Of a stretch of 33,463 nucleotides of DNA, positions 24,577 to 33,463 are shown piece after piece. The position numbers and the translations under genes were made by a program. The notes under the pieces are model-generated. The model did not search any database. It saw only the letters and a program-made list of their open reading frames with translations, and had not been told where the DNA came from. Within the stretch, counting starts at the first letter, position 1, and each line of letters begins with the position of its first letter. The stretch comes from a virus (Duplodnaviria > Heunggongvirae > Uroviricota > Caudoviricetes), in IMG/VR virus record IMGVR_UViG_2548876860_000012, positions 1 to 33,463 of that record; one strand, given 5' to 3'.

Positions 24577-25235
24577 GCGTTAGTTTCTCCACAGTCACGA
24601 CACGCCACGGCGCCCGGAGCTGCACACTCGCGGGCGTCACTACTTTCTGAAACGCAAAAGATTTTGTAGACCAGAGCTGCATGCTCCTGCAGCTTCGAAA
24701 TTGAGAGGTACAGCTCATCGTTAATTGCTGTCTTCTCATGCGGTTCCACCACACCGTCTTCAATTGCTGAACGAATCTGTCTGGAATAACTGCCGATCTG
24801 TTCAATGACTTCCAGCAGACGCTGGTTAATATCGGCATTGTCCACATCCTCGACGTCAGGAAGAGACACAAAGATGCCATTTGCAGACTGCGCCACAGCG
24901 TCAGCAATGAAGTGAGTTCCACCAGCACGTTGCAAAATCATTGCCCATCCCAGCGGGAAAATCTGATCGCCATCGGCACGAAGGCGGTTAAATAATGCGT
25001 TTTCTGTTACGTCCAGCCAGTCAGCAGCTTCAGCGTAACCCCCCGGCAACGCTGCGATAGTTTTTCTGACAGCTTTCACGTACCACTCAGGCTGTTTTTC
25101 TACTTTCCAGTGATGCTTACCCACGGTTAACTCCTCGTTTCTGTGGTTACGTTTACGCAGCTGAACCGCTAACTTTTGAATAGCACTCAGGTAATCCATC
25201 ATTTGGATTGGGGTAAATATCAGGACGCAGTTCAT
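24573..25235 (-). CDS. Early regulatory protein (CII-like/YdaT-like, tentative)
   Basis: 220-aa ORF directly downstream of cro-like; its 5' end overlaps cro by 83 nt, so the true start is probably internal. Confidence 0.35.
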
Positions 25236-25416
25236 GAGGGGTCACGGACCAGTTTCCCAACTCACAAAGTTGTAAAACCCGTTCTGACGGGACTTGATTG
25301 TTAATTACCCAATTAGCGACGGATTGAGTGGACTTAAAACCAAAGTGACGGGCTACTTCAGATAAAGATTTTCCCGCAGCTTTTACTGCTTTCTCTGTGT
25401 AGTTTTGAGATGACAT
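25153..25416 (-). CDS. Cro-like HTH regulator
   Basis: 87-aa ORF transcribed divergently from the CI gene, with GGAGGAG Shine-Dalgarno upstream and an HTH-like segment (SLSEVARHFGFKSTQSVANWV). Confidence 0.7.
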   Translation of the reverse strand: MSSQNYTEKAVKAAGKSLSEVARHFGFKSTQSVANWVINNQVPSERVLQLCELGNWSVTPHELRPDIYPNPNDGLPECYSKVSGSAA

Positions 25417-25532
25417 ACCTTTCTCCTCCGAAATTCAGAGGGATGATGCTACTTAAAATAGCAAAATGCAACTACTTAAAATAGAAATGACTAGCGTATG
25501 TGATGCGAGTAATCTTCTACCTATGGTAGAAG
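25417..25532. promoter_or_regulatory. Divergent immunity promoter/operator region (OR-like)
   Basis: Two copies of the 13-mer CTACTTAAAATAG 23 bp apart (25449-25461 and 25472-25484) between cro-like and cI-like genes, plus an inverted repeat CTTCTACC-TAT-GGTAGAAG at 25514-25532. Confidence 0.6.
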
Positions 25533-26227
25533 AACAGAAGTATCCAGATTTCGCCAAGAGACTAAACGAGCTAATGACAAACAAGGGAATTTCTGTCACC
25601 CAACTCAAAAGTCTTGTGGGCGTTACATATGAAATGGCGCGGCGATACACAATCGGCGCTGCGAAGCCTCGTGCCTCTGTCATGAATAAACTTGCATTGG
25701 CTCTGGGGGTATCAGCTTCATATTTAGAATATGGTGTTGGCGAGAGAGAAGGATGTAAGGAAATGGCAAGCATCCCCAATCCAACAAAACCCGATGTATA
25801 CAGGATAGAAGTTTTGGATCTTAGCGTTAGCGCAGGACCTGGGACCTATATGCTTTCAGACTATGTTGATGTGCTCTACGCCATTGAGTTCACAACAGAG
25901 CATGCCCGTTCTCTTTTCGGTAATCGTTCTCAAGATGATATTAAAGTTATGACTGTAAATGGCGACAGCATGTCCCCTACTCTAGTTTCCGGAGATCGAC
26001 TGTTTGTCGACATTTCTGTTCGCAACTTCCAAACTGATGGTGTTTACTCTTTCGTTTATGGTAAGACGTTCCACGTTAAACGTCTACAAATGCAAGGCAA
26101 CAAACTCGCCGTTCTTTCGGATAATCCAGCCTATGAGAAATGGTACATTGATGAGAAGTCCCAAGATCAACTTTATGTTATGGGCAAAGCATTGATACAC
26201 GAATCAATTAAATACAACCGGCTTTAG
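25466..26227 (+). CDS. CI-type prophage repressor (HTH plus S24 LexA-like peptidase domain)
   Basis: 253-aa ORF with an HTH N-terminus (ISVTQLKSLVGVTYEMARRY) and S24 motif VNGDSMSPTL. Start is ambiguous (25466 or the internal ATG at 25523). Confidence 0.8.
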   Translation: MQLLKIEMTSVCDASNLLPMVEEQKYPDFAKRLNELMTNKGISVTQLKSLVGVTYEMARRYTIGAAKPRASVMNKLALALGVSASYLEYGVGEREGCKEMASIPNPTKPDVYRIEVLDLSVSAGPGTYMLSDYVDVLYAIEFTTEHARSLFGNRSQDDIKVMTVNGDSMSPTLVSGDRLFVDISVRNFQTDGVYSFVYGKTFHVKRLQMQGNKLAVLSDNPAYEKWYIDEKSQDQLYVMGKALIHESIKYNRL

Positions 26228-26397
26228 TTCTTCATTTAGACTATAGAACTAAAGGTAAAAAAATAATATTTAGCAAGCAAGTGCTATTACTAATAGTTGT
26301 TTTACTCTCTTATTTTTATTAAACATTATCATTAACAATATAAAATAATTACCCAGCGTAAATTACAATATGCTGGGGGTCGAAAGGATAGAGAAAC

Positions 26398-27474
26398 ATG
26401 ACAAAATCAATTTGTTTTTTTAATCATAAAGGTGGGGTAAGTAAAACCACAACAACCTTCAATCTTGGATGGGCACTTGCGGATGAAGGCAAGAAAGTAT
26501 TGATGGTTGACCTTGATTCGCAATGTAATCTAACAGGAATGGTTCTTGGCTATGAAAAGATTGATGAGGGTTTAGATTCTTTTTATTCTAGCAGAGATAA
26601 CTTAACTCTTGGACCTATTGTAGAATATTTGATTAATGGCGGACAACCTGAAGCATACCTTGAAAAAGAAACGGGAAAATTACACCCTACACTGCATGAA
26701 AACCTTCTGCTTCTTCCCGGACATTTAGATGTTTCGGACTTAGATTCACAGATAAGTGTTTCTCTAAAAATTGCTGCTGGTATTCCTGCTACAAGAAATA
26801 TACCAGGGAACCTGCCAAAAATATTACAGCTAATCGCCTTGAAGAATAATATTGATTACATTCTTTATGATCTCAGCCCTAATGTTGGAGGTTTAAATGA
26901 AGTAGTTCTCATGTCAAGTGACTATTTTATCGTACCTGTAGCTCCAGACTTTTTTTGCTGGCAAGCAATTCGCTCTCTCTCAAAAAATATACCTCGCTGG
27001 CACAAAGAATTAGCATTATTTAAAGAAAATAATGATGGTAACTCTTCACAATCAATTAAAAATGCACCGCAGTTTCTAGGCATGATTCAGCAGAGATACA
27101 GGCCGCGTAAAGGAGCACCTGTAAAATCTTTCGAAAAATGGATGGCAGCTATCCGTGATGCTGTTGATTCGATCTTAGTGCCAAATCTAGAAAAAATTAC
27201 CTGCATAATTCCACGAGATAAAGTGCAACATGCAATTAACAAAACAACAGTCAGTGGAGATTTATCAGCCTATGATCTTGCGCATATTTCCGATTTCAAC
27301 TCATTAATCGCAATAAGCCAACAACTAGCGACACCTGTTTTCTCCATCAGTGATCAGCAAATTCGCGATTCAGGGCAATTTGGGCATGCCTTAAATACAA
27401 TGAAATCAAGCAGAGACGCCTTTAACGAACAATTTAAAGGGCTGGCTCAACGAGTTCTAGAACTTACAAAGTAA
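26398..27474 (+). CDS. Orphan ParA/MinD-family P-loop ATPase
   Basis: 358-aa ORF with deviant Walker A (NHKGGVSKTTTTFNL), A' (VLMVDLDSQ) and B-like (IDYILYDLSPN) motifs and AAGGA Shine-Dalgarno. AT-rich; no ParB-like partner in the window. Confidence 0.7.
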   Translation: MTKSICFFNHKGGVSKTTTTFNLGWALADEGKKVLMVDLDSQCNLTGMVLGYEKIDEGLDSFYSSRDNLTLGPIVEYLINGGQPEAYLEKETGKLHPTLHENLLLLPGHLDVSDLDSQISVSLKIAAGIPATRNIPGNLPKILQLIALKNNIDYILYDLSPNVGGLNEVVLMSSDYFIVPVAPDFFCWQAIRSLSKNIPRWHKELALFKENNDGNSSQSIKNAPQFLGMIQQRYRPRKGAPVKSFEKWMAAIRDAVDSILVPNLEKITCIIPRDKVQHAINKTTVSGDLSAYDLAHISDFNSLIAISQQLATPVFSISDQQIRDSGQFGHALNTMKSSRDAFNEQFKGLAQRVLELTK

Positions 27475-27481
27475 TGCATGT

Positions 27482-27515
27482 GCCCGGCCGCATAACCGGG
27501 CTTTACTCTTCTTTC
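27482..27515 (+). terminator. Rho-independent terminator after the ParA-like gene
   Basis: GCCCGG-ccgcataa-CCGGGC hairpin followed by the T-rich tract TTTACTCTTCTTTCT, starting 8 nt after the stop codon. Confidence 0.55.
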
Positions 27516-27694
27516 TCCCTGATTAATCTCATAAAAAACTCCCTCCTCATAATTCACTATGCTCAATACCTACTCCAACTTCGTGCGATATTTTCAGTTT
27601 ACAGCATAGTAAATCAGCAAAAACATTTAACTTTCAATTAATTATAGAAAAATCATAGACAACAACAAATATCTACTTTTTGTTGTTGATTTTT

Positions 27695-27717
27695 GCTACT
27701 TTAAGTAGCAATATAAT
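27695..27717 (+). promoter_or_regulatory. OL/pL-like operator-promoter
   Basis: 15-bp palindrome GCTACTTTAAGTAGC (27695-27709), closely related to the OR repeat, immediately upstream of a perfect TATAAT (27712-27717). Confidence 0.55.
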
Positions 27718-27918
27718 GTAAGCTATCACGGACAGGCAGGACGCCCACGAAGTAGCCGCCTGGGGCATATGAAGTCCAGGATGATTCGTTGAGTCATGTT
27801 GTGCCACTAGGCACTCATGTTAAAGCAGGTGTATGAAATGAAAGTCCAGATTTTAAACAATAACTGTGAAGTCGTTTGGGCGTAAAACATGACCGCGCGT
27901 AGACCAAGGGAGGAAAAA

Positions 27919-28095
27919 GTGGGAATAGTTAGAAATCAAGCAGATATATTGAAAATCAGCTCTGAATTGCTTGGAGTTTTGAAAAGTGAGCTCACCGCAC
28001 ATGGCATCGAGCCCACTGACGAAAATTTAAGTTGGGTTTTGTCGATTATTCAACAATCACTCAAGCCCAGCCTCAGCAAACTTTTTATCGAGTAG
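27919..28095 (+). CDS. Small hypothetical protein, first ORF of the early-left operon
   Basis: Track ORF 27889-28095; preferred start is GTG at 27919, preceded by AAGGGAGG at 27906-27913. Not Arg-rich, so not N-like. Confidence 0.35.
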   Translation: MGIVRNQADILKISSELLGVLKSELTAHGIEPTDENLSWVLSIIQQSLKPSLSKLFIE

Positions 28096-28248
28096 TGCTT
28101 CGAACTTATCGTAAAGCTTGCTTATGTCGTCTATCGGGTTTTCTGACGTACTGTAATTTTTATCTGATGTCATGGCAGCAGTCTGATATGCAGTGTGAGT
28201 CTTAACCGATAGTTGGAATAAATAAAGAATTTTTTCTTCTTTGGTCAT
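28057..28248 (-). CDS. Small hypothetical protein antisense to the early-left operon
   Basis: ATG at 28248 with AAGGAA Shine-Dalgarno 7 nt upstream (MTKEEKILYLFQLSVKTHTAYQTAAMTSDKNYSTSENPIDDISKLYDKFEALLDKKFAEAGLE); 3' ends converge on and overlap the 27919-28095 ORF. Confidence 0.35.
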   Translation of the reverse strand: MTKEEKILYLFQLSVKTHTAYQTAAMTSDKNYSTSENPIDDISKLYDKFEALLDKKFAEAGLE

Positions 28249-28449
28249 AACTATTTCCTTCTTGGCTATATGAAAACACCAAGATACCACCGAGCCTGAA
28301 GTGGTGAAAAGACAGGCACATAACAGCTAAGTATTTTCAACCAGAGAGAATCCTTAGCGTTGTGGTGAATGCGGCTCAGCGCACGCGGGTTAAGGTTGAG
28401 ACTGACAGTCGACCTTCTGTGGATACCCACCCGCCTGGTGTGCAACCTT

Positions 28450-28637
28450 CGCCAGGCACCGGGAGGCACCCGGCACCACAACTTTATGCTGTGTGTAGTC
28501 CTGGCGGTACCAGCTTGTACCCTTGCTTCCGGCTGGTACCTCCTTTTTACAAAACAGAGAAGAGCATCACCGGACGACGGGCTCATAACCCAATCCATCC
28601 GGGCGGCGGCCACCACAGGTGTTCTTCTCTGTTTTGT
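28450..28637 (+). ncRNA. Candidate structured RNA element in the pL operon leader
   Basis: GC-rich island with nested inverted repeats: CGCCAGG (28450-56) / CCTGGCG (28500-06); GGTACCAGC (28506-14) / GCTGGTACC (28532-40) followed by TCCTTTTTAC; perfect 15-bp repeat 28549-28563 / 28623-28637 around a 49-nt core. Its translation is Pro/Gly/Arg/His-rich and implausible as protein. Confidence 0.4.
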
Positions 28638-28685
28638 GGAGAAACTAATCGGCCTTGCAGGGTCGATATGATGAGGAGCAGCAAA

Positions 28686-29048
28686 ATGGCTAGCGAACGC
28701 AGTACTGATGTGCAGGCATTTATCGGGGAGCTGGACGGCGGCGTATTTGAAACCAAAATCGGCGCAGTTCTCAGTGAAGTCGCTTCCGGTGTGATGAACA
28801 CGAAAACCAAAGGTAAGGTCTCACTCAACCTGGAAATCGAACCATTTGATGAGAACCGTGTGAAAATCAAACACAAACTCTCATATGTTCGCCCGACTAA
28901 CCGCGGGAAAATTTCTGAAGAAGACACCACCGAAACGCCGATGTATGTCAATCGCGGTGGTCGCCTGACTATTCTGCAGGAAGACCAGGGACAATTGCTG
29001 ACTCTTGCTGGTGAACCTGACGGAAAACTCCGCGCAGCAGGTCATTAA
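28686..29048 (+). CDS. YfdP-like hypothetical protein (120 aa)
   Basis: Start moved to the ATG at 28686 (GAGGAG Shine-Dalgarno upstream); length and position ahead of the yfdQ/yfdR-like genes match the CPS-53 yfdP arrangement as recalled. Confidence 0.5.
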   Translation: MASERSTDVQAFIGELDGGVFETKIGAVLSEVASGVMNTKTKGKVSLNLEIEPFDENRVKIKHKLSYVRPTNRGKISEEDTTETPMYVNRGGRLTILQEDQGQLLTLAGEPDGKLRAAGH

Positions 29049-29113
29049 TATCGTTCTTAATTAACTGATTATTTATCTCATCACTGAATATCTTTATATA
29101 GTGAGGACTTATT

Positions 29114-29938
29114 ATGTCTCAGAACTTAGACGCAACCGCAATTAATCAAATCCATGCTCTTATTTCTGCTCAGGGTGTTAATGAAATTATCAGTAAGATT
29201 GGTGCCGATGCTGTGGCATTGCCTGAGAATTTCCGCATTCATGATCTGGAAAAATTTAATTTAAATCGCTTCCGTTTCCGTGGTGCGCTTTCCACTGCCA
29301 GCATCGATGACTTTACCCGTTATTCTAAAGATCTTGCAGATGAAGGCACCCGCTGCTTTATCGATGCTGATAATATGCGTGCCGTCAGTGTGCTTAACCT
29401 GGGTACTATTGATGAACCAGGTCACGCAGATAACACCGCCACTCTCAAACTGAAAAAGACAGCACCGTTCTCTGCACTGTTGTCTGTTAACAGCGAGCGT
29501 AACTCCCAGAAGTCACTGGCAGAATGGATTGAAGACTGGGCCGACTACCTTGTGGGTTTTGATGCTAATGGTGACGCTATCCAGGCAACAAAAGCGGCTG
29601 CGGCTGTCCGTAAAATCACGATTGAAGCAAACCAGACCGCTGATTTTGAAGATAATGACTTCAGCGGCAAACGCTCCCTGATGGAGTCTGTCGAAGCGAA
29701 GACCAAAGACATTATGCCAGTGGCATTTGAATTTAAATGCGTTCCGTTTGAAGGTCTGAAAGAACGTTCTTTTAAATTACGCCTCAGCATTATCACTGGC
29801 GATCGTCCTGTACTTGTTCTGCGCATTATTCAGCTGGAGGCGGTGCAGGAAGAAATGGCTAACGAATTTCGCGATCTGCTTGTTGAGAAATTCAAAGACA
29901 GCAAAGTAGAAACCTTTATTGGTACTTTCACCGCCTGA
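29114..29938 (+). CDS. yfdQ: YfdQ-like protein (DUF2303 family)
   Basis: 274-aa ORF, the same length as E. coli YfdQ as recalled, followed by an HD-domain YfdR-like gene. Confidence 0.55.
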
Positions 29939-29952
29939 TTTGATTACTGCAA

Positions 29953-29970
29953 ATGCCCCTGCGGGGGCAT
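29953..29970 (+). terminator. Stem-loop (weak terminator or stabiliser) after the yfdQ-like gene
   Basis: ATGCCCC-tgcg-GGGGCAT perfect 7-bp stem with tetraloop, 15 nt after the stop; only a weak T tail (TTATGG). Confidence 0.4.
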
Positions 29971-30066
29971 TTATGGAAACGTAATTAACTCAATAATCGC
30001 CGGATGGTGAGGGCTTCCTTTTACCAGAATTCAGTGCGGTGCAGCGCAAATAACGTGGAGAACAAA

Positions 30067-30615
30067 ATGTCATTTATTAAAACTTTTTCCGGGAAGCATT
30101 TTTATTATGACAGGATAAATAAAGACGACATCGTTATTAACGATATCGCGGTTTCCCTTTCAAATATCTGTCGCTTTGCAGGACATCTTTCACACTTCTA
30201 CAGCGTCGCCCAACATGCGGTTCTTTGCAGCCAACTGGTACCGCAGGAATTTGCTTTTGAAGCGTTAATGCATGATGCAACAGAAGCGTATTGCCAGGAC
30301 ATCCCCGCTCCACTGAAACGCCTTCTTCCTGACTATAAACAGATGGAAGAAAAAATAGACGCCGTAATCCGTGAGAAATACGGGTTACCCCCGGTTATGA
30401 GTACGCCCGTGAAATATGCCGATCTCATCATGCTGGCAACAGAACGCCGCGATCTCGGGCTTGATGATGGCTCTTTCTGGCCTGTACTGGAAGGCATCCC
30501 GGCAACAGAGATGTTCAACGTGATTCCACTGGCACCGGGCCATGCCTACGGGATGTTTATGGAACGCTTTAAAGAGCTGCATAAGATGCATAAACAATCC
30601 AGACAGCGAAATTAA
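30067..30615 (+). CDS. yfdR: HD-domain phosphohydrolase (YfdR-like)
   Basis: Start moved to the ATG at 30067 (GGAG 8 nt upstream), giving 182 aa; HD motif in LMHDATEAYCQDIPAPLKRLL. Confidence 0.6.
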   Translation: MSFIKTFSGKHFYYDRINKDDIVINDIAVSLSNICRFAGHLSHFYSVAQHAVLCSQLVPQEFAFEALMHDATEAYCQDIPAPLKRLLPDYKQMEEKIDAVIREKYGLPPVMSTPVKYADLIMLATERRDLGLDDGSFWPVLEGIPATEMFNVIPLAPGHAYGMFMERFKELHKMHKQSRQRN

Positions 30616-30643
30616 CTAGTGAAATAGTTTTGTAGCAAAAGAA

Positions 30644-30904
30644 ATGAGGTTATCAAAAATGCTTCAAATGCTGACACTTGAGGAATGGGCTGCGGAAAAA
30701 TACAGAAGTAATCCTCCAAGCGTGTCCACATTGCGTCGTTATGCTAAGCAGAATTTATTTTGTCCACCGGCAATGAAACAAGGTCGACTATGGCGAGTGC
30801 GTGAAGACGCAGAGTTAGTTGGGGAATTAGTTACTCCTGTCATCAAGAAAAATGATTCTATTATTCTACAAAGGATTTTAAGTAATGGCAGCCAGACCAC
30901 GTAA
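30644..30904 (+). CDS. xis: Excisionase (lambda Xis-like)
   Basis: LTLEEWAAEKYRSNPPSVSTLRRYAKQNLFCPPAMKQGRLWRVREDAELV parallels the lambda Xis pattern; overlaps the int start as in lambda. True start probably an internal Met. Confidence 0.8.
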   Translation: MRLSKMLQMLTLEEWAAEKYRSNPPSVSTLRRYAKQNLFCPPAMKQGRLWRVREDAELVGELVTPVIKKNDSIILQRILSNGSQTT

Positions 30905-32012
30905 AAATAATGTTTCAGTCCCGAACTTGTATCCGCTTTATAGTAGAAAAGTAAATAAAGTCTATTGGCGATATAAACATCCAGTGACCGGGAAGTTTCA
31001 TTCTTTAGGCACAAACGAAGCTGAAGCCATTGCTATTGCCACTGAGGCAAATTCACGCCTGGCTGAGCAAAGAACCCGGCAGATTCTGGCTATCAGTGAC
31101 AGGATCGCAACCAGCAAAGGAAAAGCAATCACAACGTCAACCTGGTTAGATCGCTATCAAGCAATCCAGGATGACAGACTGGAAAGTGGCGATATAAAGC
31201 TAAACACCTATAAACAGAAAGCCAAACCAGTATCCTTGCTCAGGGAACGAGCAGGAATGAAATTAATTTCATCAGTTGATGTAAGGGATATAGCACAATT
31301 ACTTGACGAGTATATCACTGCCGGGCAACCGAGGATGGCGCAAGTAGTCCGCTCCGTTCTAATTGATGTATTCAAGGAGGCACAACACTATGGGGAAGTC
31401 CCTCCGGGCTATAATCCAGCACTGGCAACCAAACAACCCAGAAGAAAAATTACCCGACAACGGTTAAGTCTTGAAGAATGGCAAAAAATCTTTGATATCG
31501 CAGATGCCCGCCATCGTTATATGGGGAATGCCATGCTGTTAGCACTGGTTACCGGCCAACGGTTAGGTGATATCTCACGTATGAAATTTAGCGATATTTG
31601 GGATGATCATCTTCACGTCATCCAAGAAAAAACCGGGAGCAAAATCGCCATCCCGCTTTCCCTTCGCCTCAATGCAATTAACTGGAGTTTACGCGATGTA
31701 GTAGCCCGCTGCCGTGACTATGCAGTCAGCCCATACCTTGTACATTTTTTTCGTACTACTTCACAGGCTGAACGTGGCGCGCAAGTAAAAGCCAATACAT
31801 TGACGATGAATTTCAGTAAAGCGAGGGATTTAGCAAACATTGACTGGGGTGAAGGTTCGCCCGCCACATTCCATGAACAAAGATCTTTATCTGAGCGACT
31901 TTACGAAGCTCAGGGCGTCGACACCCAAAAACTTCTGGGACATAAATCGCCTAACCAGACAGCTAAATACCATGATGATCGTGGTAAGGAATGGGCAAAA
32001 ATCAAGGTTTGA
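30885..32012 (+). CDS. int: Tyrosine integrase (lambda Int family)
   Basis: 375-aa ORF whose C-terminus (ATFHEQRSLSERLYEAQGVDTQKLLGHKSPNQTAKYHDDRGKEWAKIKV) closely parallels lambda Int, including the catalytic-Tyr region. Confidence 0.9.
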   Translation: MAARPRKNNVSVPNLYPLYSRKVNKVYWRYKHPVTGKFHSLGTNEAEAIAIATEANSRLAEQRTRQILAISDRIATSKGKAITTSTWLDRYQAIQDDRLESGDIKLNTYKQKAKPVSLLRERAGMKLISSVDVRDIAQLLDEYITAGQPRMAQVVRSVLIDVFKEAQHYGEVPPGYNPALATKQPRRKITRQRLSLEEWQKIFDIADARHRYMGNAMLLALVTGQRLGDISRMKFSDIWDDHLHVIQEKTGSKIAIPLSLRLNAINWSLRDVVARCRDYAVSPYLVHFFRTTSQAERGAQVKANTLTMNFSKARDLANIDWGEGSPATFHEQRSLSERLYEAQGVDTQKLLGHKSPNQTAKYHDDRGKEWAKIKV

Positions 32013-32033
32013 ATTTTACAAAATTGAATGATA

Positions 32034-32049
32034 CTGTATATGCATACAG
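32034..32049. promoter_or_regulatory. SOS-box-like motif (CTGT-N8-ACAG)
   Basis: CTGTATATGCATACAG; the extended 20-mer TACTGTATATGCATACAGAA matches the LexA consensus TACTGTATATATATACAGTA at 17 of 20 positions. Confidence 0.45.
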
Positions 32050-32070
32050 AATTGAAAGAAAATTAAGCTC

Positions 32071-32099
32071 TTGAAAGTGCTTGGTTTTATGGAATAATG
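32071..32099 (+). promoter_or_regulatory. Sigma70-like promoter for the downstream operon
   Basis: TTGAAA (32071-76), 17-bp spacer, ATAATG (32094-99); AGGAG Shine-Dalgarno at 32116-32120 precedes the ATG at 32128. Confidence 0.45.
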
Positions 32100-32127
32100 A
32101 AACCAAATAGTTTACAGGAGTTTTCTT

Positions 32128-33024
32128 ATGCAGTTGTATGCCTTACGTGTGTTAATGAGACCGCGCGATCCAGACCTCTTTTCGAAAGGAACTGTTCAGA
32201 AAGATATCTCTCATTTTGAAAATGCTATGGTTATCGCTGCAAAAAATTTACACATGACGTCATCAACACCTTCCGTTCATAAGAAAACTAGTTACACCCT
32301 GAAATTGAGCATAAAACCTACTGATGGTGTTATGGCTGGAGTCATATCAAAGCTGCAAAAGATTAAAGGACATGATAAAGACTTTCGAGAGTACGATGTA
32401 GACAACTATCCACCTATCGTATGGATTTGGGACAAAGTAGAGCAGGTGTTACTGGTTGAGAGGAAAACCGCTGTTTTCAAGGATGCGCAACAAGTTGCTA
32501 AAGCGTTCGAAGATCTAGCCAATAACGACTATTTGGCTCAGTTAGGACTTAGAATATTTATAGAGCCTTGTCTTGAAATGGAAGATTTTTGGTCAGAATA
32601 CCATAGGCTTCAATTTATCGACAAAGTCAGCTTTACGCTGATTACTCCGAATATCTTCGGAAGCAGTAAGCAAGCGTTAACCAATGATTTACGGAAGCTT
32701 GAAAAAGATACCAATGCAAATACTGTGACCACTATTTTTGAAAACAAAGATGGCAATTTGAAACTCAAAGGTTCTCATTGGGCTGAGACTCTTGTTGACT
32801 GGGTCAAAGATGGTGGCGGGTCATGGTTGATTAAAGGACGTAAGACACTCAAGTCAAAATCTACTACGGTATCCAGTAATCAGACAGCCAAAATCGTGCT
32901 GATCGAAGGTGAGATATCAGAAATTGAACTTGATGGCTACTCAGCAAATGATATTAAAGAGATCATAGCATTACATCAAAACAGGTATACGTTCAAAAAT
33001 GCAAAATCTAACTGTCTGGATTAA
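32128..33024 (+). CDS. Hypothetical protein, first gene of an AT-rich two-gene operon
   Basis: 298-aa ORF with good Shine-Dalgarno; no motif I recognise. Lys/Asp/Glu-rich and AT-rich, unlike the prophage structural genes. Confidence 0.6.
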   Translation: MQLYALRVLMRPRDPDLFSKGTVQKDISHFENAMVIAAKNLHMTSSTPSVHKKTSYTLKLSIKPTDGVMAGVISKLQKIKGHDKDFREYDVDNYPPIVWIWDKVEQVLLVERKTAVFKDAQQVAKAFEDLANNDYLAQLGLRIFIEPCLEMEDFWSEYHRLQFIDKVSFTLITPNIFGSSKQALTNDLRKLEKDTNANTVTTIFENKDGNLKLKGSHWAETLVDWVKDGGGSWLIKGRKTLKSKSTTVSSNQTAKIVLIEGEISEIELDGYSANDIKEIIALHQNRYTFKNAKSNCLD

Positions 33025-33463
33025 AGCTATAGCTACCTTCTTTTTGTGCTTAGCATTAGCATCGACTGATAAAACCATTTATACCTTACTTGAGCAGGCT
33101 TCTGCTGGAGTAATAGGTTCAATACTTGGAGGTATTGCCGCAGGTATCTCCGTTATCTTCGGAATTTTGGCTGTCATTAATAAGGGCGAGAAAAGCACAG
33201 ACTTTACGGACTATTTAGATAGTTTAGAATTAGATTTGAAATTACTGGTCATGTGTCTGGCAGTAACAATCTTCCTTCCCTATTTACGTAATTATGACAT
33301 ACCACTAGTAAATTATCCTCAGCACGAATTTATCCCTTCTAAAGGCAAGCTATTTACTGCTTTAGAACTTTTTGCTATCGTGCTATCTCTTAACCTCATT
33401 GCAGAAGTGATTAGCTGCATGATTTTAGTGGTTAAAAAAAGTTTCAAAATTGAATCAAAGTGA
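32999..33463 (+). CDS. Small four-TM membrane protein, second gene of the operon
   Basis: 154-aa ORF overlapping the upstream gene by 26 nt; four hydrophobic helices (AIATFFLCLALAS; GVIGSILGGIAAGISVIFGILAVI; LKLLVMCLAVTIFLPYL; ELFAIVLSLNLIAEVISCMILVV). Its stop codon is the last 3 nt of the window. Confidence 0.6.
   Translation: MQNLTVWIKAIATFFLCLALASTDKTIYTLLEQASAGVIGSILGGIAAGISVIFGILAVINKGEKSTDFTDYLDSLELDLKLLVMCLAVTIFLPYLRNYDIPLVNYPQHEFIPSKGKLFTALELFAIVLSLNLIAEVISCMILVVKKSFKIESK

Follow-up and report, generated by a model that had tools for sequence, protein, structure and literature searches.

Three consecutive early genes in a phage-derived stretch of 33,463 nucleotides (hereafter the window, meaning the whole stretch analysed) raise the question of what such a trio does for the phage that carries it. 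An earlier note had taken them for the E. coli CPS-53 genes yfdP, yfdQ and yfdR, one of them coding for an HD-domain hydrolase, and had proposed that together they control host replication through DnaA. The three open reading frames follow one another on the plus strand and end at the stops that the note had given:

28686-29048, plus strand: yfdP, 120 aa; 119/120 residues (99.2%) identical to K-12 YfdP; phrog_204, E 1e-49.
29114-29938, plus strand: yfdQ (DUF2303), 274 aa; 270/274 (98.5%) identical to K-12 YfdQ; PHROG 210, E 4e-119; Pfam PF10065, 305.6 bits against a cut-off of 26.6.
30067-30615, plus strand: yfdR (HD-domain phosphohydrolase), 182 aa; 168/178 (94.4%) identical to K-12 YfdR; phrog_318, E 5e-108.

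These identities come from the pairwise check that the note had set, a global alignment with the K-12 MG1655 CPS-53 proteins as translated from locus L001, and at the DNA level positions 28667-30572 are 97% identical to K-12. Similarity is far beyond chance. Gene order and the lengths of 120 and 274 aa stand as described, but the third protein has 182 aa and not 178. The genes are thus near-identical copies of familiar E. coli prophage genes, which is a correct but ordinary finding: genes, order, prophage context and DnaA link have all been published already. Longer versions of two of the genes were rejected. The 228-aa frame at 28362-29048 is not a longer YfdP, because its upstream part is a structured-RNA region and because K-12 homology, which spans the full 120 aa, and the distant homologues begin at ATG 28686, preceded by GAGGAG. 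The third frame is open from ATG 30004 (203 aa), but K-12 and distant homologues share the start at ATG 30067, which has GGAG before it.

Over residues 1-168, YfdR differs from the K-12 protein at two positions only (K16R and R92Q), and its final 10-14 residues are unrelated to K-12 YfdR. Homology to K-12 stops at about 30572, within the 3' end of yfdR, and gives way to xisE/intE, so the last 14 codons of yfdR are part of the xisE-side module. The claim of an HD-domain hydrolase is borne out by YfdR, in which the metal-binding pattern H...HD...D is present (H50, H69, D70, D119), H50, H69, D70, E73, D78 and D119 show no variation when aligned with Pseudomonas-type homologues, and residues 19-173 match PDB 2gz4 (E 3e-13). 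PHROG 318 is annotated as deoxyribonucleoside 5'-monophosphate phosphatase and the RefSeq gene name is 5'-deoxynucleotidase. YfdR does not reach the cut-offs of the NCBIfam YfbR 5'-deoxynucleotidase equivalog (NF003009; 20.5 bits, cut-off 122) or of the Pfam YfbR-like family (PF12917; 24.9 bits, cut-off 25.9). It is related to YfbR but belongs to a distinct phage subfamily (phrog_318, COG1896) and is no YfbR orthologue. K-12 YfdR, an HD-domain phosphohydrolase, shows weak 5'-deoxynucleotidase activity (cited in PMC4776307). Homologues of YfdR were found in 337 phage records, compared with 184 for YfdQ, and include proteins of virulent and jumbo phages of Caulobacter, Stenotrophomonas and Bacillus.

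The genetic surroundings of the trio consist of the following features:

25449-25461 and 25472-25484: operator copies near the repressor, by operator motif.
25466-26227, plus strand: CI-type repressor (HTH and S24 peptidase); Pfam Peptidase_S24 1.6e-16, HTH_3 2e-5.
27694-27717, plus strand: candidate oL/pL, a palindromic operator TGCTACTTTAAGTAGCA followed by TATAAT at 27712-27717.
27889-28095, plus strand: first ORF of the early-left run, 68 aa; phrog_15476, 7e-50; annotated in phage 689R6.
28329-28551, plus strand: STnc100/PasD-like structured RNA; Rfam RF02076, 41.1 bits, E 1e-7, full model length.
28545-28641, plus strand: long hairpin in the yfdP leader, stem of about 20-25 bp, ACAAAACAGAGAAGAGCATCACC (28549-28571) pairing with GGTGTTCTTCTCTGTTTTGT (28618-28637).
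29951-29972, plus strand: perfect hairpin between yfdQ and yfdR, AAATGCCCC-TGCG-GGGGCATTT, U-tract absent.
30644-30904, plus strand: excisionase (xisE type); Pfam Exc 6e-12; annotated xisE in matching genomes.
30885-32012, plus strand: integrase (intE type; lambda-Int arm-binding domain and tyrosine recombinase); Pfam Arm-DNA-bind_1 7e-37, Phage_integrase 1e-18.

The true start of the repressor is likely ATG 25487. The 13-bp operator motif CTACTTNAANTAG has three sites in the 33.5-kb window (25449, 25472 and 27696; 0.16 expected by chance), so that it is confined to the cro/cI region (oR) and to 27696-27708, where it adjoins the TATAAT. From these motifs we infer that 27694-27717 is the start of the early-left operon carrying yfdPQR; promoter activity is predicted, and the pL assignment follows motif logic with a weak -35 element. 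The plus-strand run extends from 27889 through yfdPQR to xis and int, ending at 32012, and the genes around it come in lambdoid order (Cro, CII, O, RusA, Q). [quoted passage not shown]

The two leader RNA elements separate yfdP from the putative pL. The STnc100 match was found with relaxed thresholds and falls below the gathering score of 47, and at gathering thresholds Rfam returned no match in the whole window; phage 689R6 carries a like element at 42.5 bits. Positions 28330-28690 fold with z = -5.17, and the 3' end of the STnc100-like RNA forms a terminator-like hairpin within 28506-28548, in which GGTACCAGC (28506-28514) pairs with GCTGGTACC (28532-28540) and is followed by TCCTTTTT. Pfam and PHROG recognised no N-like antiterminator in the window; a Q-type one is present, for the late operon. 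The leader hairpin is part of a stable fold (28540-28700; -62.6 kcal/mol, z = -5.09), and homology over its stretch accompanies yfdP in 82/83 enteric loci. The fold of 29930-30075, between yfdQ and yfdR, is unexceptional (z = -1.74).

The cassette is common, being found in 3107/5426 complete E. coli genomes and also in SfV, SfIV, mEp460, Stx2c phages and vB_EcoM-689R6. Its presence here matters little, given that the genes are published and that over half of the complete E. coli genomes have the cassette. The P-Q-R-xis-int arrangement occurs in the induced phage vB_EcoM-689R6 and in 109 E. coli genomes, and the late and early-right genes of the window are 97% identical to those of 689R6 and SfII. 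Early-left operons are described as carrying clusters of the yfbR/yfdQ/yfdP type (LLS, ST64B, phiNP, ArgO145) fairly often; the first gene putatively encodes a 5'-nucleotide phosphatase, and the remaining two are without known function (Genome Res 2025, PMC12315714).

Across the YfdQ clusters compared, the conserved core is YfdP-YfdQ, with yfdR as an optional neighbour. Scanning viral contigs with the YfdQ alignment gave only loci of at least 99% identity, and the diversity described here comes from scans with distant YfdQ sequences; the pair is widespread in phages, at about 1700 clusters at 50% identity. YfdP, whose homologues are tagged PF27127, immediately precedes YfdQ in 158/160 loci, the window among them, and the same order holds in 19 of the 20 evaluable clusters among 21 YfdQ clusters, whereas YfdR is linked to the pair in only 5/21. 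A conserved pair with an optional yfdR is a poor fit to a three-gene module built on DnaA control, and that part of the earlier proposal is not supported. ERF and YqaJ recombination genes lie less than 4 kb from P-Q in 8/21 clusters, SSB genes are near it in 3/21 and DnaQ-like genes in 4/21; in Vibrio, Xanthomonas and other phages the pair sits between or beside genes for ERF, YqaJ exonuclease, DnaQ-like exonuclease and SSB.

YfdQ fits its family over its full length (residues 7-272 on positions 2-269 of PF10065), and the DUF2303 representatives listed are mostly of 264-288 aa, with an extra domain in none. It matches PDB 9o7m, a newly deposited entry named 'YfdQ protein' with 36 YfdQ chains (E 5e-44), which was the only match when a 55-sequence YfdQ alignment was searched as a profile against PDB sequences; a literature search found no paper mentioning 9o7m or a YfdQ structure. 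Because this sole solved entry holds 36 chains, YfdQ probably forms a large homo-oligomer, the chain count being the one basis for saying so. The Xanthomonas-phage YfdP is absent from the PDB, which means that 9o7m does not show a P-Q complex containing it. The structures of YfdQ and YfdP were predicted with pLDDT 73.9 and 76.4, respectively, the AF2 model of YfdP consisting of one long helix and three long beta-strands, and comparison of both with PDB and BFVD gave no significant or informative match. In these searches no recombinase, nuclease or DNA-binding protein turned up as similar to either protein in fold or sequence.

What the earlier note says on DnaA matches the published account, in which K-12 YfdR binds DnaA in dependence on Phe46 (domain I) and multicopy yfdQRST inhibits replication initiation (Noguchi and Katayama 2016, PMC4776307). 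[quoted passage not shown] YfdR alone competes only moderately, with other gene products needed in vivo, and YfdQ is needed in the assay yet binds neither DnaA nor YfdR; deletion of yfdQRST has no replication phenotype, and the authors allow for an over-expression artefact (PMC4776307). [quoted passage not shown] In the window, yfdQ and yfdR of this inhibitor set are both intact and near-identical to K-12, and xisE directly follows yfdR. Homologues of yfdS (DUF551), yfdT and torI were sought across the window and none was found (tblastn with K-12 YfdS/YfdT, best E 0.3). The earlier reading as a host-replication control module is thus only partly supported; full published inhibition by this copy is doubtful because the third component that it requires (YfdS or YfdT) is absent.

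Our preferred reading, to which we give a probability of roughly 60%, is that the window holds the yfdP-yfdQ-yfdR cassette that is a standard accessory of enterobacterial lambdoid phages, here in a temperate myovirus of SfV/SfII-like type that integrates by e14-type Xis/Int, with YfdR acting on dNMPs and P-Q serving phage replication/recombination. Lying downstream of the repressor operator and promoter at about 27.7 kb, the three genes would be silent in the lysogen, and on induction or infection they would be transcribed together with xis and int. YfdR would then act on the dNMP pool and may also dampen host oriC initiation, and the obligate, conserved YfdP-YfdQ pair would most likely serve phage DNA replication/recombination rather than DnaA control. 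Against this, the terminator-like hairpin stands in the way of transcription from the putative pL to yfdP while no N-type antiterminator was recognised, and YfdQ is required in the K-12 assay, so P/Q may act in the DnaA pathway after all. The different C-terminal 14 residues of YfdR could alter partner binding.

The idea that the three genes jointly shut down oriC initiation on induction through YfdR and DnaA, in the manner of lambda P, draws on the Phe46-dependent binding and multicopy inhibition (PMC4776307), on the near-identity of YfdR residues 1-168 to K-12 and on the early-left position. We consider it rather unlikely, given the ineffectiveness of yfdQR without yfdS/T, the dispensability of yfdP, the silent deletion and the authors' own caution (PMC4776307), together with the lack of a yfdS/T homologue in the window and the rarity of the R-P-Q linkage. 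YfdR might also be solely a dNMP phosphatase that reshapes deoxynucleotide pools in lytic growth, its DnaA binding being incidental. The 5'-deoxyribonucleotidase of phage T5 is a model for such a role. Invariant HD catalytic residues, the PHROG 318 and RefSeq names and the spread of homologues across virulent and jumbo phages, wider than that of YfdQ, all fit, but the low score on the 5'-deoxynucleotidase equivalog does not and P and Q are left unexplained, and we regard this as possible, if short of probable.

That P-Q is an unrecognised DNA-metabolism complex beside or replacing the phage Rec module, and here supports recombination-dependent replication, would explain its recombination-gene neighbours elsewhere and is in keeping with a window that itself lacks ERF, YqaJ, DnaQ-like and SSB genes, with the damage sensitivity of the K-12 yfdQ deletion (cited in PMC4776307) and with the 36 YfdQ chains. 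However, neighbourhood by itself is weak evidence, neither protein was found to resemble a recombinase, nuclease or DNA-binding protein, and the cassette also occurs outside Rec-less phages and is missing from some of them; ArgO145 combines it with a full Rec module (PMC12315714), which argues against P-Q as a recombinase substitute. We regard this explanation as unlikely. Finally, P-Q and/or R could neutralise a host immune system, as many early-left accessory genes do. Large oligomers are common among sponge-type inhibitors, the genes are predicted to be expressed early, their cassette is mosaic, and P and Q have no competing established biochemical function. The strict pairing of P with Q next to recombination genes, as seen in distant phages, suggests another role, and we think an anti-defence role improbable; PADLOC, whose library covers defence systems and not counter-defence, gave no defence-family match for P, Q or R.

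The lead from this locus is the strictly conserved unit, YfdP-YfdQ, which is genetically tractable through the inducible phages 689R6 and SfV. Speculatively, the pair could be a two-protein phage machine on replication/recombination intermediates, in which YfdQ has a fold without recognisable relative and is probably a large homo-oligomer, and the DnaA binding of YfdR is a lineage-specific add-on. If true, this would explain P-Q beside ERF/YqaJ/SSB genes in marine and plant-pathogen phages as well as, in lambdoid phages that lack a Rec module, in the slot which that module would fill. A caution also follows: the DnaA account was established for a K-12 remnant that included yfdS/T but not yfdP, and so it should not be carried over to P-Q-R-xis-int prophages like the one here.

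Among known systems, lambda P and B. subtilis SirA, small proteins of a mobile element or of development that bind DnaA and block initiation, are comparable to the activity proposed for YfdR. SirA shares with YfdR a dependence on the residue that corresponds to DnaA domain I Phe46 (PMC4776307), whereas lambda P binds domain III, and YfdR has no sequence relationship to either protein. The HD-domain COG1896 phosphohydrolases E. coli YfbR and Agrobacterium Atu1052 share with YfdR the HD fold family and the H...HD...D residues, although similarity to YfbR itself is marginal (E 0.79 to 2paq). The LLS, ST64B, phiNP and ArgO145 alleles are more distant, phiNP YfdQ being 58.5% identical to that of the window, and the published treatment of the P-Q pairing considered it within Enterobacterales (PMC12315714). 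K-12 CPS-53/KplE1 has yfdP-yfdQ-yfdR(-yfdS-yfdT-torI) in the same order and orientation as the window. There a rearrangement against a truncated replication gene ends the cassette 19 bp upstream of yfdP, leaving it without repressor, operator and leader RNA, and on its other side the cassette runs on into yfdS, yfdT and torI, whereas in the window homology ends in the yfdR 3' end and xisE/intE follows. In SfV, orf30-32 are yfdP, yfdQ and yfdR, and SfV and SfIV share positions 28283-30576 only, with different sequence downstream. Phage vB_EcoM-689R6 (ON470584) has another repressor (209 aa, with the ParA-like gene absent) and other cargo after int (a DUF262 protein), but it covers 97% of window positions 28200-30950 at 96.9% identity and has the P-Q-R-xis-int arrangement and the STnc100-like element in common with the window.

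Three consecutive plus-strand ORFs of the window are yfdP, yfdQ and yfdR, as an earlier note had proposed from the sequence alone. Aligned to the K-12 MG1655 proteins (prophage remnant CPS-53, translated from locus L001), YfdP is identical at 119 of 120 residues (99.2%), YfdQ at 270 of 274 (98.5%) and YfdR at 168 of 178 (94.4%). The expected lengths of 120 and 274 aa hold for the first two, whereas YfdR, expected at about 178 aa, has 182 aa in the window.

Features of the repressor region and the yfdPQR cassette
25466-26227, CI-type repressor (HTH + S24)
27482-27501, terminator after the ParA-like ATPase gene
28686-29048, plus strand, yfdP ORF, 120 aa
29114-29938, plus strand, yfdQ ORF, 274 aa
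30067-30615, plus strand, yfdR ORF, 182 aa; conserved start at 30067, frame open from 30004

Window 28667-30572 is 97% identical to K-12 DNA, and the yfdPQR cassette occurs in 3107 of 5426 complete E. coli genomes (both by Megablast). In Pfam, the 274-aa YfdQ matches DUF2303 (305.6 bits) and YfdR has weak HD/YfbR-like matches; YfdP, YfdQ and YfdR match PHROGs 204, 210 and 318 (E 1e-49 to 5e-108). The catalytic HD-domain residues H50, H69, D70 and D119 are intact in the window's YfdR, which matches the solved HD protein Atu1052 (2gz4) at E 3e-13. A defence-system family search with the three proteins gave no match. The cassette is already known rather than novel; it was correctly identified and is found here in a natural intact context.

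We compared the window with 161 YfdQ-bearing loci, drawn from phages with annotation and from four scans of viral contigs, calling ORFs at each locus and detecting YfdP and YfdQ by profiles and YfdR, YfdS and YfdT by iterated searches; grouped at 80% identity, the YfdQ sequences give 21 clusters. Of 160 evaluable loci, 158 have YfdP directly 5' of YfdQ, as do 19 of the 20 clusters that could be evaluated. The pairing extends to phages of Vibrio, Pseudomonas and Xanthomonas, where YfdQ shares only 37-41% identity with that of the window. Only 5 of the 21 clusters link a YfdR-like gene to YfdQ, and YfdR homologues are found in 337 phage records, virulent and jumbo phages included, compared with only 184 for YfdQ. 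The near-constant pairing, the sparse linkage of YfdR and its wider spread argue that P-Q is the conserved functional unit and that YfdR is an independent enzyme, a regular neighbour of P-Q only in enteric phages.

ERF-family annealing proteins and YqaJ exonucleases lie at most 4 kb from P-Q in 8 other clusters of the 21; 3 clusters have SSB close by and 4 have DnaQ-like exonucleases. At six loci from Vibrio, Xanthomonas and related phages (L004, L006, L133, L149, L154 and L157), YfdP-YfdQ sits between ERF or a YqaJ-domain exonuclease and SSB. In many cases the flanking YqaJ-domain exonuclease has a long C-terminal extension and measures about 580 aa. No YfdQ cluster of the sample is both ERF-linked and YfdR-linked.

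YfdQ matches PDB entry 9o7m ('YfdQ protein', 36 chains of one sequence) at E 5e-44. The 9o7m sequence differs little from the YfdQ of Xanthomonas phage Tabio (E 1e-167) and comes from a Tabio-type phage of Xanthomonas/Xylella (compare L006, 4004-4828). A literature search for 9o7m did not find a describing paper. AF2 models of YfdQ (pLDDT 73.9) and YfdP (76.4) had no significant structural neighbour in a fold library lacking 9o7m, and a 55-sequence YfdQ profile run against PDB returned nothing beyond that entry. At 50% identity the YfdQ family splits into 1723 clusters; most of the listed representatives have 264-288 aa, and an added domain is seen in none of them.

The earlier note went further and took yfdPQR to be a single host-replication control module, a possible reading that we consider unlikely. 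Noguchi and Katayama (PMC4776307) isolated yfdQRST because, in multiple copies, it suppressed the over-initiation of hda-185. YfdR is established elsewhere as a DnaA binder and as a weak dNMP phosphatase (PMC4776307). In that work the minimal gene set is yfdQ and yfdR plus yfdS or yfdT, deletion of yfdQRST leaves initiation unaffected, and the authors allow an over-expression artefact as a possibility (PMC4776307). No YfdS or YfdT homologue was found anywhere in the window (best E 0.3), so the experimentally defined inhibitor set is incomplete in this prophage. In the enteric cluster, S or T is present at 62 of 73 evaluable loci and neither at 11. Function is recorded as not known for yfdQ and yfdP homologues (PMC12315714). 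For the window's yfdPQR allele, the functional claim calls for more cautious wording.

K-12 homology ends at about 30572, within the 3' end of yfdR, so the last 14 residues differ and xisE/intE (excisionase and integrase genes) follow directly. This mosaic junction joins CPS-53/SfV-type sequence on the 5' side to an e14-type xisE/intE module on the 3' side. It occurs in 109 of 5426 E. coli genomes (the yfdR 3' segment in 2960) and in vB_EcoM-689R6 (689R6), an induced temperate myovirus.

Placement of the genes in the early-left region is supported by a repressor operator upstream. The motif CTACTTNAANTAG has only three sites in the window (25449-25461, 25472-25484 and 27696-27708; chance expectation 0.16). 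Two lie at the cro/cI divergent region; the third is a perfect palindrome, TGCTACTTTAAGTAGCA, with TATAAT directly after it at 27712-27717. These operator-like copies probably mark oR and oL of the window's immunity type, and we read 27694-27717 as a putative oL/pL with predicted promoter activity. From this point at 27.7 kb a plus-strand run comprises a 68-aa ORF, a structured RNA region, yfdP, yfdQ, yfdR, the excisionase and a lambda-type integrase. Midway along the putative pL operon, a minus-strand ORF (28057-28290, 63-77 aa, phrog_2605) overlaps the last part of the 68-aa ORF; strain GPEC617 has it annotated as a hypothetical protein, and so, in a longer form, does 689R6. The probable start of the repressor ORF is 25487, close to the operators or overlapping them, pointing to a transcript with a short leader or none.

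Within the putative pL operon, just 5' of yfdP, 28329-28551 (+) matches the full Rfam STnc100 model at 41.1 bits (E 1e-7), below the gathering score of 47; its end forms a terminator-like hairpin. Both STnc100 and PasD have been described as sRNAs of prophages (bioRxiv 10.64898/2026.05.13.724894). Three reading frames stay open through the element, which other records annotate as a frameshifted hypothetical protein; it is also present in 689R6 and missing at loci with C4/isrK-type immunity regions. A second hairpin in the yfdP leader, 28545-28641 (+), has a near-perfect 20-25 bp stem (z = -5.09). Homology including the STnc100-like part is found at 38 of 83 enteric loci, and the 28545-28641 stretch is common to 82 of 83 and lost in K-12. 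We ruled out this hairpin as a terminator because it has no U-tract; speculatively, RNase III could process the transcript there.

Upon induction, the cassette would be expressed together with xis and int. YfdR would then work on the pools of dNMPs, possibly with a dampening effect on host initiation, and P-Q may assemble into a large complex for phage DNA replication or recombination.

Over window 1-25000, 689R6 covers 96% at 97% identity and Shigella phage SfII 93%, and the early-right genes are lambdoid (Cro-like HTH, CII-like, O-like, PerC/YfdN, RusA, KilA-N, DUF968 and Q antiterminator). Known modules are combined in a new way in this prophage. Single-place coverage of the 8.5 kb at 25000-33463 is at most 65% in every complete E. 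coli genome of the collection; the immunity, yfdPQR-xis-int and cargo modules are each found at 99% in some E. coli genomes. Two low-GC (0.38) ORFs 3' of the integrase, 32128-33024 (+, 298 aa) and 32999-33463 (+, 154 aa to the window end), have no match in Pfam, PHROG, NCBIfam or PADLOC, and this cargo occurs in only 32 E. coli genomes. The same spot holds a DUF262 protein in 689R6 and other hypothetical genes in GPEC617, which points to a variable cargo slot adjoining the attachment site.

Directly 3' of the CI-type repressor lies a gene for a 358-aa ParA/AAA_31-type ATPase (26398-27474, +). For this protein PADLOC finds only a weak similarity of the N-terminal P-loop to candidate system PDC-M28B. 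The module of repressor and ParA is present at ≥99% identity in 109 of 5426 E. coli genomes. In lambda, the slot occupied here by this ParA-like ATPase gene is held by rexAB.
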